Assembly (NCBI RefSeq): GCF_003334385.1
Contig: NZ_QOWN01000076.1
Reading direction: 5' to 3' (one strand)
DNA: 6,564 nucleotides
DNA from: Escherichia coli
Lineage (GTDB): Bacteria > Pseudomonadota > Gammaproteobacteria > Enterobacterales > Enterobacteriaceae
The notes beneath the pieces are model-generated. The model was not told where the DNA came from. It made no database searches and worked only from the letters and a program-made list of their open reading frames with translations. This document shows positions 1-6,461 of this stretch, one piece after another. How positions within the stretch are numbered: the first letter of the stretch is position 1; every line of letters starts with the position of its first letter. The position numbers and the translations under genes are program-made.

Positions 1-242
1 AACGCGAGGCATCGTCTTAACGAGGCACCGAGGCGTCGCATTCTTCAGATGGTTCAACCCTTAAGTTAGCGCTTATGGGACACACAGATTCATTTTGTCT
101 TTCTTCAGCAGCAAAATACACTGCGGTTATTATTTAACCATTAAATCAACAAAAAATTTTACCTCATATTGATTTGACTGCTATTTTTGCTATTAATAGC
201 CAGAATTGCAGTGCTTTTATATCTGTGTATAGTGAGGTTACT

Positions 243-1727
243 ATGTCATTCGGTCAGCCTTGTGATGAGTTTCCCCTGAGTTCGCTGCCTCCACTCATTC
301 GTGATGCCGTTATTGAAGCTCAGCAAATTACGCAGGCTCCCCTTGGGCTTGTGGCAGCGTCTGCCCTGGGCGCTGTTTCACTTGTCTGCCAGAATCTGAT
401 TGATGTCTGCAGACTGAATACACTGCGGGGGCCGGTCTCTCTTTTTTTCCTGACGCTTGCCGAGTCCGGAGAACGAAAAACCGCAGTGGACAAATTATTA
501 ATGAAGCCCCTGTACCAGCAGGAGATGCAGTTATATTCCAGATACAAAAGTGAACTGGCTGTCTGGAAAAACAAGGAAGAGCTTTTAAAGGCTCAGAAAA
601 AAGCATTGTTGTCAAAACTGAATAAAGAACTCCGCAAAGGCGCGGATGAGTCAGAAACCCTCAGACAACTGGAAGTACTTCAGAAAAACAGTGCGGAAGA
701 ACCTGTGAGGTATAAATTCATTTTTAATGATGCCACGACTGCGGCAATTAAGAATCAGCTTTGTGGTAAATGGCGTTCAGTTGGTATTATGTCAGATGAA
801 GCCGGTATTATATTTGATGGATATACCCTGTCTGAGTTGCCTTTTATTAACAAAATGTGGGATGGCTCTGTATTGTCTGTGGACAGAAAGAATGAACCCG
901 AACAGATGATTGAAAATGCCAGAATGACGTTATCCCTCATGGTGCAACCCGGTCTTTTTGACCGATATATGGAGCGAAAAGGTTCTGTTGCCAGGGACAG
1001 TGGTTTTCTTGCCCGTTGTCTTATCAGTAAACCTGCAACCACGCAGGGGAAACGCTTTATTAACGGAGCTGTGATTCCGGGAGGATCATTAACGGCATTT
1101 CATGAACGATTAATGGAACTGGCCAGAGGCAGTATTGAAAAATCCAGTGAGGATGAACGGTATTGTCTGCATTTTTCGCCTGAAGCGCAAAAAATATTTA
1201 TTGAGCACTATAATGTTCTGGAGCAGGATTTATCCCCTTCCGGACCCTTAAGCCCGTTTCGGGGACATGTTTCAAAAAAAACAGAAAACATTGCAAGAAT
1301 TGCAGCGTTATTTCAGTATTTCAGCTATGGTGAAGGGAAAATCTCTGCCGATATCATGACGTCTGCTGTCGTAATAAGTTCGTGGTACACAGATGAATAT
1401 AAAAAATTATTTGCGTTACCTGATGAATCTGAACTGCAGCAGAAGGACGCCGAGGAGCTGTTCGACTGGCTCATTGAGGAGTGCCGCGGAGAATGCCCGC
1501 CCCGTGTCAGGAAAAATTATATTCTCCAGTGTGGCCCGGGCCGGTTCAGAAACAGGAAAAAACTGAACGCATTGCTGAACATTCTTGAATCTCAGTTCAG
1601 GCTTTCTGTCGTGCCGGAAGGAAAAACCATGTATGTTCTGCTTCCCCAGATAGCCAGTTTAAAGTTGTCTGATGTCTCTGGTATTTTTACCTCGGGTTAT
1701 CACTACAATAAGCTGAGAGCGAAGTAA
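243..1727 (+). CDS. DUF3987-domain protein, YfjI-like (family associated with replication/primase modules of integrative elements and satellites)
   Basis: Long ORF 174..1727 in the track. TTG at 174 has no Shine-Dalgarno; ATG at 243 is preceded by GAGG (234..237) with a 5-nt spacer, so 243 is the preferred start (494 aa). The N-terminus reads EFPLSSLPPLIRDAVIEAQQITQAPLGLVAASALGAVSL, which matches my recollection of the DUF3987 N-terminal signature (F-P-x-x-x-L-P-x-x-L-R-D ... Q-x-P ... small-residue helix). No overlapping ORF is comparably long. Family assignment is from memory, not a search. Confidence 0.7.
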   Translation: MSFGQPCDEFPLSSLPPLIRDAVIEAQQITQAPLGLVAASALGAVSLVCQNLIDVCRLNTLRGPVSLFFLTLAESGERKTAVDKLLMKPLYQQEMQLYSRYKSELAVWKNKEELLKAQKKALLSKLNKELRKGADESETLRQLEVLQKNSAEEPVRYKFIFNDATTAAIKNQLCGKWRSVGIMSDEAGIIFDGYTLSELPFINKMWDGSVLSVDRKNEPEQMIENARMTLSLMVQPGLFDRYMERKGSVARDSGFLARCLISKPATTQGKRFINGAVIPGGSLTAFHERLMELARGSIEKSSEDERYCLHFSPEAQKIFIEHYNVLEQDLSPSGPLSPFRGHVSKKTENIARIAALFQYFSYGEGKISADIMTSAVVISSWYTDEYKKLFALPDESELQQKDAEELFDWLIEECRGECPPRVRKNYILQCGPGRFRNRKKLNALLNILESQFRLSVVPEGKTMYVLLPQIASLKLSDVSGIFTSGYHYNKLRAK

Positions 1728-2048: not shown

Positions 2049-2651
2049 TCAGGTGCGCTTATCGTCAACCGTTGTGCGGTATGACAGGAGCACGTACTGA
2101 TCCATCAGATCCGTCAGTGCTGCGCTCTGCTTCTGACGGTTGATGATCCATTCCTCCAGCTCTTTTTCTGATTTCCGTTTCAGATTCTCCGTCCAGTCGT
2201 CAAGGCAGTTTCCGGTCATTAAATCAAGCCAGCAAAGCCAGACTAGTTTGAGGCGCAACTCCGTGCCACCAAACTGACGGAAGAGGCTGATCAGTTTATT
2301 TGCCAGAGAACGCTGCCTCAGACGTTCACATTCAGACAGGAGAATGCCTTCCAGCATCGGATGATGAACCAGCAGATGTTCACTGGTGCATAAATTCACT
2401 ATCAGATCATCATCCAGGGGCGGTGTGGCCCGTTTGTCAGGGCCATAAATCAGCCGGTGCAGGCTCTGGGGTACGATGGCAATCTCCGGTTTTTCACCAT
2501 TGAATGACACCCAACCGGGCGTCAGATTATGGAAGTAGTAGATATTCGGATGACACACGCCCCAGGATACGGCGTGCCGGGTGAAGCCGGTCAGCCATTT
2601 CTGGTAGCTTTCGTGGAGCCATTCGTAGCGGGTCTGATACTGTTGTTTCAT
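2049..2651 (-). CDS. Hypothetical protein (about 200 aa), unrecognised family, co-directional and downstream of alpA
   Basis: ORF 2049..2666 on the minus strand. The annotated first codon is GTG; GAGG (complement of 2661..2664) lies 9 nt upstream of the ATG at 2651 and 3 nt upstream of the ATG at 2657, so I prefer 2651 (2657 possible). It starts 94 nt downstream of the alpA stop on the same strand, suggesting an operon. The protein has mixed composition with no low-complexity runs (e.g. GWVSFNGEKPEIAIVPQSLHRLIYGPDKR, LEEWIINRQKQSAALTDLMDQ). I do not recognise the family. Confidence 0.55.
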   Translation of the reverse strand: MKQQYQTRYEWLHESYQKWLTGFTRHAVSWGVCHPNIYYFHNLTPGWVSFNGEKPEIAIVPQSLHRLIYGPDKRATPPLDDDLIVNLCTSEHLLVHHPMLEGILLSECERLRQRSLANKLISLFRQFGGTELRLKLVWLCWLDLMTGNCLDDWTENLKRKSEKELEEWIINRQKQSAALTDLMDQYVLLSYRTTVDDKRT

Positions 2652-2745
2652 TTTCATATTCCTCACGGGGATATAACAGGCAGCAGAATGCCGCCGGCAG
2701 GCCGGAGATTACGTCTGCTGCGGGTGAACGGATAACGGTCAGAAA

Positions 2746-2952
2746 TTACGGACGGGACTGTGCAATACGCGCCTGCAGCCAGGCTTCCACTTCACTTTTC
2801 AGCCAGCGGGAGCTGCGCTCCATTTTGATGGGGGCAGGAAAGCCCCCATCTTTGATGAGTTTGTAAAACCACTTATCGGTTAAGCCGGTAAGTTGAGTGA
2901 TAAACGCCATGTCGACCATCTGGTCATCCATCAGCGAAACAGGGGTAGCCAT
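2746..2952 (-). CDS. alpA: AlpA-family (phage/integrative-element) transcriptional regulator / excisionase-like HTH protein, 68 aa
   Basis: The C-terminal 68 aa of ORF 2746..3186 read MATPVSLMDDQMVDMAFITQLTGLTDKWFYKLIKDGGFPAPIKMERSSRWLKSEVEAWLQARIAQSRP. The ATG at 2950..2952 (complement) is preceded by GGAGG (complement of about 2960..2964). The small size, helix-turn-helix-like core and the motif W-x-x-S-E-V-E-A-W-L resemble the E. coli AlpA C-terminus (W-I-E-A-E-I-D-E-W-L) as I recall it. The 78-codon upstream extension is Pro/Arg/Ser-rich and not protein-like. Confidence 0.75.
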   Translation of the reverse strand: MATPVSLMDDQMVDMAFITQLTGLTDKWFYKLIKDGGFPAPIKMERSSRWLKSEVEAWLQARIAQSRP

Positions 2953-3431: not shown

Positions 3432-4155
3432 CTGATGCGTAAAATCAGCAGTGACACGCCAGCTCCCCCTGTGCCCATTCCTGTATAAGACATGAACTGA
3501 GCGTATTAATGCTCCTGCTCTGAGACTGAGCCGGTGAGTGAGGGGCTGAGAAATCCCTCTTGACACAGCTCTAAACCAGAAATACTTCCCCGGTTGTTGC
3601 GGTGCGTCCGGATCCCCGATAACGGAACACTAAGGCTGTATTGCGGGACACCGGGTAAGTGGCAGCCTGTAATGTGTTCTGTCAACGCCAGAAAAAATGA
3701 TTTTTCACACGCGTTATAGACTCACTCCTGTGGACCTGGAAGCCCGTAACTCTGCGGTTGCCCACCGACTGACGGAACTGACCGCAAACTTTACGATCGT
3801 GTTCCTGCTTCCTTCTGGTCACCTGAACTTTTAGCCAGCGCTACGATAAGTCCGGTGTTATCTGCACCGGAGGACCGGGAACATTAAGCGGTATAGCGAC
3901 AACAAAGAATTCGAAATCAAAAGGGAATGGTGCCGGAGGCGTGGGCGGTAATAGGCTGATTTTCAGGTATTACCGGCTTACAACGTGTGGTTGATATTGA
4001 GGGGCTGTGAGTTTCGCGTATTTGTCAGAAACCCAGATGAGTTTTCCTTTATGGGACGAAATAAGGCAGCGGCAATACCTGGAAAAATTTAATATGGTAT
4101 GAAGGAGAACCTGTCGGTTACGCTTAATATACACGGTACACTGTCAGCTCAGGGG

Positions 4156-4172: not shown

Positions 4173-4373
4173 TCACCAGCTACACAGTATACACACACTG
4201 ACGCTGACAGTAGTCAGCAGGACCACAATAATCAGCGCCAGCAGTATGGTAACGATACGGTCTGTATTCCGGTAGTAGCCGAAGGGGTCGACAGAACCAC
4301 AATACGGGCAACACACTGTATTATGAGTAATCGCGTTTCCACAGTCCCTGCACTTCTTTTTGCGTATCACCAT
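4173..4373 (-). CDS. Small zinc-ribbon protein with C-terminal transmembrane helix (66 aa)
   Basis: ORF 4173..4376 on the minus strand. The preferred start is the ATG at 4371..4373 (complement), with GAGGAGGGAG immediately upstream (AGGAGG about 5 nt before the ATG). The protein has two CxxC-type pairs (CRDCG ... CCPYCG) followed by a hydrophobic stretch IVTILLALIIVVLLTTVSVSVCILC. It is divergent from the YagK-like gene across a 200-bp AT-rich intergenic region. Confidence 0.5.
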   Translation of the reverse strand: MVIRKKKCRDCGNAITHNTVCCPYCGSVDPFGYYRNTDRIVTILLALIIVVLLTTVSVSVCILCSW

Positions 4374-4545
4374 CACTCCCTCCTCACAGCCTTACCCGTA
4401 ACCGATTTTTTACATTAAAAAAACAACGCTGAAAATTCAACCGTCAGTCCGGAGACGACCGTTCGGGTTATCACAGAGTGCCTGAGACAGTGTCCTGCCG
4501 GAGGTCACCTCAGGGGCTCTGCGCATTTTTTACGACGTGGTTATT

Positions 4546-4572: not shown

Positions 4573-5142
4573 ATGACCTACAAATACAACCCCTTCTGGC
4601 AGCAACGTATTCGTGAGACGGTGCGGCACGCACTGAATGTTCATCCCCGCCTGACGGCATTGCGGGTTGACCTGCGTCTCCCGGATGTACCGGCAGCAAC
4701 GGACGCAGCTGTGATATCCCGCTTCATCAATGCCCTGAAAGCCCGAATCGACGCTTACCAGAAACGTAAGCATCGGGAAGGTAAACGCGTGCATCCCACA
4801 ACCCTGCATTACGTCTGGGCCCGGGAGTTTGGGGAGTGCAAAGGTAAAAAACACTATCACCTGATGCTGCTGGTCAACCGGGATACCTGGTGTCGTGCCG
4901 GTGATTACCGCGCTCCGGAGTCTCTGGCCGGGATGATTAAACAGGCGTGGTGCAGTGCCCTGGGAGTGGATGTCGGGTGCCATGCCACGCTGGTGCATTT
5001 TCCGGCCTGGCCGGCGGTGTGGCTGGCGCGTAATGATGACACCGGCTTTCAGCAAGTGCTGGAACGTGCTGACTATCTGGCGAAGGAGCATACCAAAGCT
5101 CACTGCACCGGTGAGCGCAATTTTGGCTGTAGCCGGAGTTGA
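4573..5142 (+). CDS. YagK/YfjJ-family (inovirus Gp2-like) protein with HUH-like and YxxK-like motifs, 189 aa
   Basis: ORF 4537..5142 begins with GTG; the ATG at 4573 has GGAG (4561..4564) 8 nt upstream, so 4573 is preferred. The N-terminus YKYNPFWQQRIRETVRHALNVHPRLTALRVDLRLP matches my recollection of the YagK/YfjJ family. HYH followed by LMLLVN (HYH at 4852..4860) is an HUH-type motif, and YLAK lies near the C-terminus. The long antisense ORF 4567..5436 is rejected as GC-driven. Confidence 0.7.
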   Translation: MTYKYNPFWQQRIRETVRHALNVHPRLTALRVDLRLPDVPAATDAAVISRFINALKARIDAYQKRKHREGKRVHPTTLHYVWAREFGECKGKKHYHLMLLVNRDTWCRAGDYRAPESLAGMIKQAWCSALGVDVGCHATLVHFPAWPAVWLARNDDTGFQQVLERADYLAKEHTKAHCTGERNFGCSRS

Positions 5143-5219
5143 GCACGACTGGCGCGCCAATATCCGGCAAACCAAAAGTATGGGTTGTTGTCTGGCGGCA
5201 ACGATGTATCCACTCGCCC

Positions 5220-5243: not shown

Positions 5244-5395
5244 TCCATTGTGTGACAACCACAGTGCTGTAACAGCAACCAGCCTGCTTTACCCAAACTC
5301 CAGTCCAGATTTTAACTGAACCGCCATTCACACCCTGACCACGCTGCCCGTACCGGGACGGCTGTTGCCTGCGTGTCGTCTGGCGGCTGAGGTAT

Positions 5396-5803
5396 ATGAC
5401 TATGTACGCAAAATCCTTTATCGCTCTTGATGGCAACGGACGTCTGACGGGCGCCCGTACTGCACAGGCCGCACCTTATGCTAACTACACCTGCCACTTG
5501 TGTGGCAGTGCACTCAGATACCATCCGCAATACGAAACTGAACTTCCCTGGTTTGAACACACTGACGACAGGCTGACAGAGCACGGTCAACAGTGCCCTT
5601 ATGTCAGGCCGGAGCGCAGAGAAATACAGTTGATTAAACGTCTGCAGCAATTCGTACCGGATGCCTTACCCGTGGTGCGTAAAGCCAGCTGGCACTGCAG
5701 ACAATGTCACCACGATTATTATGGGGAGCAGTACTGCACACACTGCCAGACCGGAGGATTCAGTATTCCCCGGACAACTCAGGAGGAAATATGCGAATTC
5801 TGA
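5396..5803 (+). CDS. Cys-rich putative zinc-binding protein, paralog A (135 aa), unrecognised family
   Basis: ORF 5396..5803. GAGG (5389..5392) precedes the ATG at 5396 by 3 nt and the ATG at 5402 by 9 nt, so the start is one of the two. It contains CHLCG ... PWFEH ... W-H-C-R-Q-C-H-H-D-Y-Y-G-E-Q-Y-C-T-H-C-Q-T-G, and aligns along its length with the downstream protein. Confidence 0.6.
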   Translation: MTMYAKSFIALDGNGRLTGARTAQAAPYANYTCHLCGSALRYHPQYETELPWFEHTDDRLTEHGQQCPYVRPERREIQLIKRLQQFVPDALPVVRKASWHCRQCHHDYYGEQYCTHCQTGGFSIPRTTQEEICEF

Positions 5804-6225
5804 ACTGTTATATGGCGAATGACAGCAAAGGCCATTTTGTTACGGCGAAAGAAGCTGCGAAGCACAACCGACAGGACGTTTTGTGCTGTGTGTCCTGTGG
5901 ATGCCCGTTAACACTTCAGCGGGGCAATGACGGACAACCACCGTGGTTTGAACATGACCAGATGACTGTCGCTGAAAAAATCCTGCTGCGATGTACCTGG
6001 CTTGACCCGGCAGAGAAAGAGGCCCGTCGTTTGCATCTGCAGGGCATGACGGTTCCGGATTATACGGTGAAGGTGAGAAAGTGGTTTTGTGTGATGTGTG
6101 ACGAAGATTATGAGGGGGAAAAGTGCTGCCCACGCTGCGGTACCGGGGTATACAGCAGGGCGTGGGGGCGGCAGGAGGTGCCGTCGGAAGATGCCAGGGC
6201 TGATAATCCGTTACAGAGGCTGTAA
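5791..6225 (+). CDS. Cys-rich putative zinc-binding protein, paralog B (144 aa), translationally coupled to paralog A
   Basis: The ATG at 5791 has a strong AGGAGG (5781..5786) 4 nt upstream and overlaps the last 13 nt of paralog A (stop 5801..5803). The ORF-track start at 5704 is an unsupported extension. It contains CCVSCGC ... PPWFEH ... W-F-C-V-M-C-D-E-D-Y-E-G-E-K-C-C-P-R-C-G-T-G. Confidence 0.6.
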   Translation: MRILNCYMANDSKGHFVTAKEAAKHNRQDVLCCVSCGCPLTLQRGNDGQPPWFEHDQMTVAEKILLRCTWLDPAEKEARRLHLQGMTVPDYTVKVRKWFCVMCDEDYEGEKCCPRCGTGVYSRAWGRQEVPSEDARADNPLQRL

Positions 6226-6461
6226 TGGTTGCCTCCGGAGCAGTTTGCGGTGATGCCTTTCCCGGGAATGGATTGCCGGTGCGGGGACTGTGGAGCTTAA
6301 TTCCGGTGTTGGTGGCCTTTCCGTTGATTTTATGCCAACAGCCCCCTGTGACTGACAGGCTGCCTCGTCATTCCATTCGTATCTCCAGTAACAGGGGGTT
6401 GTATTGTATTTTATTGTGCCGGTTCAGGTGTGCGTTTCCCGGCGCGTCTGCACCGGCTTAA
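6225..6461 (+). CDS. Possible small protein (78 aa) whose ATG overlaps the paralog B stop (TAATG); low confidence
   Basis: ATG at 6225..6227 overlaps TAA at 6223..6225, with GAGG (6216..6219) 5 nt upstream. The protein is Pro/Gly/Leu/Arg-rich with one hydrophobic stretch (LWSLIPVLVAFPLIL) and could equally be a GC-driven artefact. Confidence 0.2.
   Translation: MVASGAVCGDAFPGNGLPVRGLWSLIPVLVAFPLILCQQPPVTDRLPRHSIRISSNRGLYCILLCRFRCAFPGASAPA

Follow-up and report, generated by a model that had tools for sequence, protein, structure and literature searches.

Genes A and B of the window, the whole 6,564-nucleotide stretch of Escherichia coli DNA analyzed here, encode full-length members of a catalogued protein family, DUF7828 + Zn_ribbon_11, and stem from an old duplication in which the A-then-B order is fixed. 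Zinc-ribbon genes of this family are part of the conserved core of tRNA/tmRNA-type integrative islands, where they lie at the border with variable cargo. We propose, with a probability of about 0.4, that A and B act as zinc-dependent nucleic-acid-recognition accessories of the island's excision/replication core and are not defense cargo. The features of the window that enter the argument are the following.

174..1727, + strand: YfjI-family (DUF3987, helicase-like) gene; phrog_2373 'DNA helicase', E 3e-82; RefSeq 'YfjI family protein'
2049..2666, - strand: hyp205, a conserved protein gene, here downstream of AlpA; no match in Pfam, NCBIfam, PADLOC or PHROGs
2746..2952, - strand: AlpA-type HTH gene (excisionase or regulator); PHROG excisionase/transcriptional regulator matches; RefSeq HTH regulator
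4573..5142, + strand: YagK/YfjJ ('inovirus Gp2 family') HUH Rep-like gene, directly upstream of A; YagK_YfjJ_C E 6e-48, REP_ORF2-G2P E 4e-5
5318..5395, + strand: conserved structured leader preceding gene A, and A-type genes of many genera, from alignments and a covariance-model search
5321-5326 (CCGCCA) and 5381-5386 (TGGCGG), + strand: outer helix of the leader, ending just before the Shine-Dalgarno site
5343-5363, + strand: inner hairpin of the leader, CTGCCC-loop-GGGACGG, with an almost invariant stem
5396..5803, + strand: gene A, A-type DUF7828 + Zn_ribbon_11 protein, 135 aa from 5396, probably 133 aa from the ATG at 5402
5781..5803, + strand: coupling junction read from the sequence, with AGGAGG at 5781-5786, the gene B ATG at 5791 and the gene A stop codon at 5801-5803
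5791..6225, + strand: gene B, B-type DUF7828 + Zn_ribbon_11 protein, 144 aa

The A and B proteins and their family

Both products match Pfam DUF7828 (PF25165; gene A, E 5.5e-31, model positions 1-87 of 87; gene B, E 9.3e-31, positions 2-86 of 87) as well as Zn_ribbon_11 (PF11682, formerly DUF3279; E 8.6e-9 and 1.7e-18, respectively). The first-pass annotation had found neither protein assignable to a characterized family; both belong to one that is catalogued and uncharacterized, appearing in UniProt as 'Ybl85' and in RefSeq as 'putative zinc ribbon protein' (A) and 'zinc-ribbon domain-containing protein' (B). Literature searches on these family names (DUF7828, DUF3279, PF11682, Ybl85 and the RefSeq name) found no relevant paper. 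The database names 'RNA polymerase beta subunit' and 'competence protein' carried by some relatives are unsupported here and look like annotation errors. The window is 97-100% identical to many E. coli chromosomes, among them those of strains GE3 and 042, and the strain GE3 proteins WP_000270978 and WP_001221615 (100% DNA match) are 100% identical to A and B. For gene A, RefSeq places the start at 5402, which gives the MYAKSF N-terminus of the homologs and is better spaced from the GAGG at 5389-5392 than is 5396; for gene B, the mechanically called open reading frame 5704..6225 is merely an upstream extension.

The A and B products share 30% identity over 125 residues (BLASTP, E 3e-15), and an alignment of 33 full-length family sequences retains the ligands, confirming the earlier proposal that the two are paralogs with a conserved metal-binding scaffold. 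Six residues are invariant in this alignment (C33, C36, F53, H55, W99 and C101) and four more cysteines (C67, C104, C114 and C117) are at least 90% conserved. Most of the motif strings given in the first-pass annotation hold, except that B has R-K-W, not R-K-x-x-W, and that the string T-A-x-x-A reduces to a single almost invariant alanine. The conserved ligands predict one CCHC site in the N-terminal domain and one C-terminal Cys4 ribbon, and we infer zinc at both the CCHC and the CCCC sites from the invariant ligands and the ribbon geometry of the structural model. In that model (AlphaFold2 from the 33-sequence alignment, gene A; pLDDT 87.9, pTM 0.59) a beta-rich zinc domain is followed by a helix at residues 72-86 and then by the C-terminal ribbon; the pTM value suggests that the zinc domain and the ribbon are flexibly joined. 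A fused A-(GGGGS)6-B construct, modeled by AlphaFold2 as a single chain from a shallow alignment with 14 paired rows, gave a pTM of 0.38, a mean pLDDT of 66 and no confident interface; as a weak test, it lends no support to the heteromeric complex that the first-pass annotation had suggested. Both genes are under purifying selection, with dN/dS of 0.19-0.21 for gene A and 0.18-0.33 for gene B, dS being saturated in the distant comparisons. Some A-type proteins outside the window (L019, L033, L034, L053 and L065) end in a cysteine-containing tail, EVTACAC or ACAY, that is absent from A of the window.

The N-terminal half of A and B has the fold of the CoiA N-terminal domain, and the PWFEH motif lies in this CCHC-site domain. 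Sub-threshold matches to Pfam CoiA_N (PF25164) occur in 8 of the 33 family members (best E 1.3e-3), so that the faint resemblance to CoiA noted in the first-pass annotation is borne out at the level of fold. We scored the CoiA_N domain as present in A and B; the PD-(D/E)XK nuclease domain (Pfam PF06054) was not detected in either protein (133-144 aa). Because this nuclease domain defines CoiA, A and B are not CoiA, and neither contains a catalytic domain. A profile of the N-terminal domain matched 287 proteins, the best 120 of which are all at most 133 residues long and share one architecture; among these 120, and within the range detectable by sequence, the domain was not found fused to any other. 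Neither protein matched NCBIfam, PADLOC or PHROGs, and searches of the PDB by sequence, with the single proteins and with a profile, returned only chance-level matches to zinc ribbons and Rpb9. The top 50 Foldseek hits in AFDB50 all belong to the same family and reveal no remote relatives.

A paired locus in the island core

Relatives are few, with 166 among 1.84 billion representative proteins, many of them fragments. We surveyed one genome each for 100,044 species with a degenerate DNA pattern for WFEH ... W-x-C-x2-C-x3-Y-x-G-x3-C-x2-C and recovered 49 loci, all in the Enterobacterales except one probable contaminant. They occur in relatives of Escherichia, in Salmonella, Klebsiella, Citrobacter, Yersinia and Serratia, and further in Pectobacterium, Budvicia, Hafnia, Photorhabdus, Mixta and Rosenbergiella. 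The exception is a 2.2-kb contig of a metagenome-assembled 'Collinsella sp.' (L044, JAIJJM010000559.1) that has essentially the A/B sequence of E. coli, the two genes being separated by an insertion, and it is probably a binning contaminant, not a Gram-positive occurrence. Among complete E. coli genomes, 3821 of 5426 contain a match, at a median of two places per genome, and 2983 (about 55%) contain an intact pair, taken to mean a place where at least 80% of the pair is covered. Matches are found on 32 of 72,556 plasmids. A phage origin of A and B was considered and rejected: tblastn found no match among 50,697 phage genome records, and of 2.9 million viral contigs just 3 matched the pattern. 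We inspected two of these contigs; the match adjoins Mu-like or lambdoid prophage genes in both, and the two matches are probably flanking island DNA.

Homologs do not always occur as adjacent pairs, a point that the first-pass annotation had put forward for checking: about half of the species-level loci have two adjacent copies and about half have one. In a neighbor-joining tree the first-position copies, which begin with MYAKSF, form one clade (A-type), and the second-position copies cluster with most singletons (B-type). The 13-nt overlap of A and B (5791-5803) behind a Shine-Dalgarno site, likewise noted earlier, is real, and overlaps of 4-13 nt recur in 10 tandem loci from several genera and on a Klebsiella plasmid; in 7 other loci B follows A after a gap of 27-133 nt. 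In 7 single-copy loci B instead abuts hyp205, at a gap of 8-10 nt. From this geometry of overlap and abutment it follows that B is often, not always, translationally coupled to its upstream partner. The pair on the Klebsiella IncFIB/HI1B plasmid keeps the same 13-nt overlap, with a B copy only 51% identical to that of the window. Some loci have frameshifted or broken second copies, for example L046, L061 and L066.

HMM annotation of the fetched loci revealed a recurring, co-oriented module of YagK/YfjJ, AlpA, sometimes hyp205, one or two zinc-ribbon genes and sometimes a second YfjJ, and the module of YfjJ, AlpA and zinc-ribbon genes is also found on the Klebsiella plasmid. In E. coli the core includes YfjI as well. 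YfjJ or AlpA lies within 2.5 kb on the same strand in 43 of the 49 species-level loci; in the remaining six, fewer than 460 nt of sequence are available upstream. Where at least 2.5 kb of upstream sequence is available (22 loci), YfjJ is present in all 22 and AlpA in 20, so that the link to YagK/YfjJ-like genes, which the first-pass annotation had proposed to check, proves very strong. The wider islands encode a P4-type integrase, a YeeP-like GTPase, DUF932, antirestriction, RadC and CbtA/CbeA genes. Downstream of the zinc-ribbon genes the content varies, with IS66 in this island and defense-like genes or other cargo elsewhere. It is because the module stays constant while the downstream content varies that we count the zinc-ribbon genes as core, not cargo. 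In K-12 CP4-57, alpA-yfjI-yfjJ is followed directly by the abpAB defense genes, with no zinc-ribbon gene, and Pseudomonas islands exist that have YfjJ without zinc-ribbon genes; the zinc-ribbon genes are thus not obligatory partners of the HUH protein. In K-12 CP4-44, the fetched region does not match the window at the DNA level. Neither of the two inspected K-12 island regions contains an intact pair, which may explain why these genes have escaped study.

Among the neighbors, YfjJ is plausibly an HUH nicking or replication protein, judging from its H-Y-H (within H-Y-H-L-M-L-L) and Y-L-A-K motifs, which are at least 80% conserved among 52 homologs; in papers mentioning 'inovirus Gp2' the gene is simply listed. 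A second YfjJ copy stands right after the zinc-ribbon genes at L019, L033, L053 and L068. Homologs of hyp205 (about 180-205 aa) are found 8-10 nt upstream of B-type genes in the 7 loci mentioned above, in other genera, suggesting that hyp205 is a partner of B; hyp205 homologs were recorded at L005 (7458-7991 and 9537-10067), L020, L032, L043 and L068.

A and B come from one transcription unit; a scan for promoters and terminators gave background-level results, and a promoter-like site is present at 4409-4436, upstream of YfjJ. Downstream of B lie an inverted repeat (6338-6402, + strand; 17-nt arms, 88% complementary, 31-nt spacer) and a terminator-like site called at 6381-6399, and in strains 042 and GE3 the IS66 element starts just past the position of the window end. 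Upstream of YfjJ and divergent from it, a 67-aa open reading frame (4173-4376, - strand; RefSeq hypothetical WP_001297219), kept in that position in E. coli islands, encodes a protein with a zinc ribbon (C-x2-C ... C-x2-C) at its N-terminus and a hydrophobic helix at its C-terminus. The Hha/YmoA-family gene of strain 042 has no intact counterpart of at least 40 aa at about 3660-3836 (+ strand) of the window and may be disrupted. Short repeats, among them a 14-nt direct repeat with copies at 5186 and 5374, were treated as chance.

The leader upstream of gene A

Between E. coli and Mixta, conservation is higher in the roughly 75 nt that precede gene A than in the intergenic DNA further upstream. 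A motif for the inner hairpin, TGC[CT]C-N3-9-G[GA]GA[CT]GG, was found 35 times in 1.32 Mb of fetched locus sequence, almost always at most about 40 nt upstream of an A-type start. In single-sequence folds the outer helices, which covary, differ in sequence by clade (CCGCCA/UGGCGG, CUGGAAGC/GCUAUCCAG and GCACGAC/GUCGUGC), and all enclose the hairpin. A covariance model built from nine sequences yielded 28 matches in 53 sources, every one just upstream of a zinc-ribbon gene and on its strand. Three of these precede B-type singletons (L036, 6133-6204; L050, 2164-2239; L051, 7950-8026), suggesting that in these loci the A gene was lost and the leader kept.

RNAalifold on MAFFT alignments of the leader recovered the inner hairpin only, the flanks being misaligned, and an alignment to the covariance model was needed. 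In that alignment, which is fitted to the model, 92.3% of cells are paired, as compared with 24-41% in slid controls. Compensatory changes, on both sides, are seen at 12 of the 18 pairs, and none of 500 shuffles matches the observed values. The sense strand is favored by the excess of G-U over A-C cells (50 versus 12); the folding energy of the single sequence is unremarkable (z-score -0.5) and not distinctive on either strand. No Rfam family matches the leader. On its 3' side the outer helix stops a few bases short of the Shine-Dalgarno site, suggesting control of the translation of A and, via coupling, of B, and the leader probably sets or feeds back on the translation of the two genes.

Proposed role, alternatives and known relatives

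We favor a role in which A and B recognize DNA or RNA and work in trans with machinery encoded by the island itself, most probably the HUH endonuclease, which they would help to find or handle its substrate in excision, replication or transfer; what they recognize could instead be a partner protein bound to nucleic acid. Recognition of nucleic acid is suggested by analogy, because the same N-terminal domain precedes nucleases in cis in CoiA-like proteins. The near-neutral and variable predicted pI of the family (5.1 to 9.1), unlike that of typical small DNA binders, counts against such a role, and zinc ribbons can also mediate protein-protein contacts. We also count against it the YfjJ-bearing islands that have no zinc-ribbon gene and the fused A-B model with its missing confident interface. 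The pI helps to hold our confidence near the value given at the outset. A bolder form of this proposal is that A and B, the leader, YfjJ, AlpA and hyp205 make up an undescribed module for the control of excision and replication in a very common class of Enterobacterales islands, in which the zinc proteins would direct the HUH endonuclease or recombination intermediates in trans and the leader RNA would serve as a switch or a binding target; we regard this as unlikely, though worth stating, since if it were true the study of the module would also show the role of the CoiA N-terminal domain in natural transformation.

Other functions would account for parts of the same evidence. A and B could be small zinc-finger transcription factors, similar to P2 Ogr and P4 Delta, that contact RNA polymerase or promoters and activate island or helper genes. 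Their small size, their two zinc modules, the adjacent AlpA in islands with P4-type integrases and the P4-alpha-like YfjI, and a near-neutral pI that fits protein contacts all agree with this, as does a weak profile match, short of significance, to Rpb9, an RNA polymerase subunit with two ribbons (E 0.07). That match, however, reflects cysteine spacing only, the Ogr_Delta profile (C-x2-C-x22-C-x4-C) gave no Pfam match to A or B with E up to 10 and no PHROG match, and the genes are missing from phage genomes and, in essence, from viral contigs too, leaving such factors an improbable explanation. Less probable again is a function as RNA-binding autoregulators, or as regulators of translation, that act mainly on the leader before gene A. 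The leader is specific to A-type genes, ends at the Shine-Dalgarno site and favors the sense strand in its G-U pairs, as this explanation would have it; yet it is usually missing before B-type singletons, the conserved sequence of its inner stem might just as well be bound by AlpA, YfjJ or a host factor, and its folding energy is that of an ordinary sequence.

The first-pass annotation had offered defense, anti-defense or element maintenance as possible functions, and among these element maintenance fits best. That A and B are an undescribed phage-defense or anti-defense pair, carried as cargo, is the least supported of the functional alternatives and has in our view only a slim chance of being correct. 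The pair does border the region where islands hold defense cargo (abpAB in K-12; SMEK/CTD10, McrB-like and methyltransferase genes at other loci), antirestriction genes occur in the same islands, and a CoiA-domain protein, which we counted in favor of defense, has been reported among E. coli defense systems (PMC9519451). That protein is described only as containing a CoiA domain, whereas A and B hold the N-terminal zinc domain alone and no nuclease. Moreover, PADLOC-DB 2.0 contains no family matching A and none matching B, neither has an effector domain, and the genes are always co-oriented with and beside the Rep-like/AlpA core, staying constant while the adjoining cargo changes. It is very improbable that the genes are decaying remnants without present function, even though many database entries are fragmentary or frameshifted, second copies are broken at some loci and an IS66 element follows the pair in this island. 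The low dN/dS of both genes, zinc ligands that are invariant across genera, the conserved overlap geometry and leader, and the number of complete E. coli genomes with intact pairs all run counter to decay.

The A and B sequences are already catalogued as a domain of unknown function and are not new in themselves. Four things appear undescribed: the structural relation to CoiA_N, the A/B paralogy in its fixed form, the close ties to the HUH/AlpA core, and the leader. So far there is no sign of an unprecedented mechanism. The islands whose conserved core includes the pair bring with them adhesins, toxin-antitoxin systems, antirestriction genes and defense cargo, and the binding targets of A and B, once defined, would help to explain how such islands are regulated and move. 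Jumbo phages have recently been shown to transduce related Pseudomonas islands that contain an integrase, AlpA and a Gp2-like protein (PMC12595487). Work on A and B could also supply a function for the CoiA N-terminal domain, and the leader is a separate candidate cis-regulatory RNA that can be tested directly.

Three known groups of proteins bear comparison with A and B. P2 Ogr and P4 Delta are, like A and B, small zinc proteins of mobile elements with P4-type integrases, and P4 Delta is a tandem duplication, whereas the duplication of A and B yields two genes; the cysteine patterns differ, and A and B lack a phage or satellite context. Double zinc-ribbon proteins (Zn_ribbon_6/YfgJ, with an Rpb9-like layout) have two zinc modules joined by a linker, as A and B do, and weak Zn_ribbon_6 matches occur in 12 of the 33 family members, covering the C-terminal ribbon only; the N-terminal module of A and B is of the CCHC, CoiA-N-like type and not a second Cys4 ribbon. 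CoiA itself is a competence protein and PD-(D/E)XK nuclease needed for the recombination step of natural transformation. In the one paper found on it, the CoiA N-terminal domain is termed only a putative zinc finger, a point that we weigh against the proposed role of A and B. The similarity of A and B to CoiA_N falls under the Pfam threshold by sequence (best E 1.3e-3), and where CoiA continues from its N-terminal domain into a nuclease domain, A and B continue into a Cys4 ribbon; CoiA belongs to competence regulons, A and B to the islands of the Enterobacterales.
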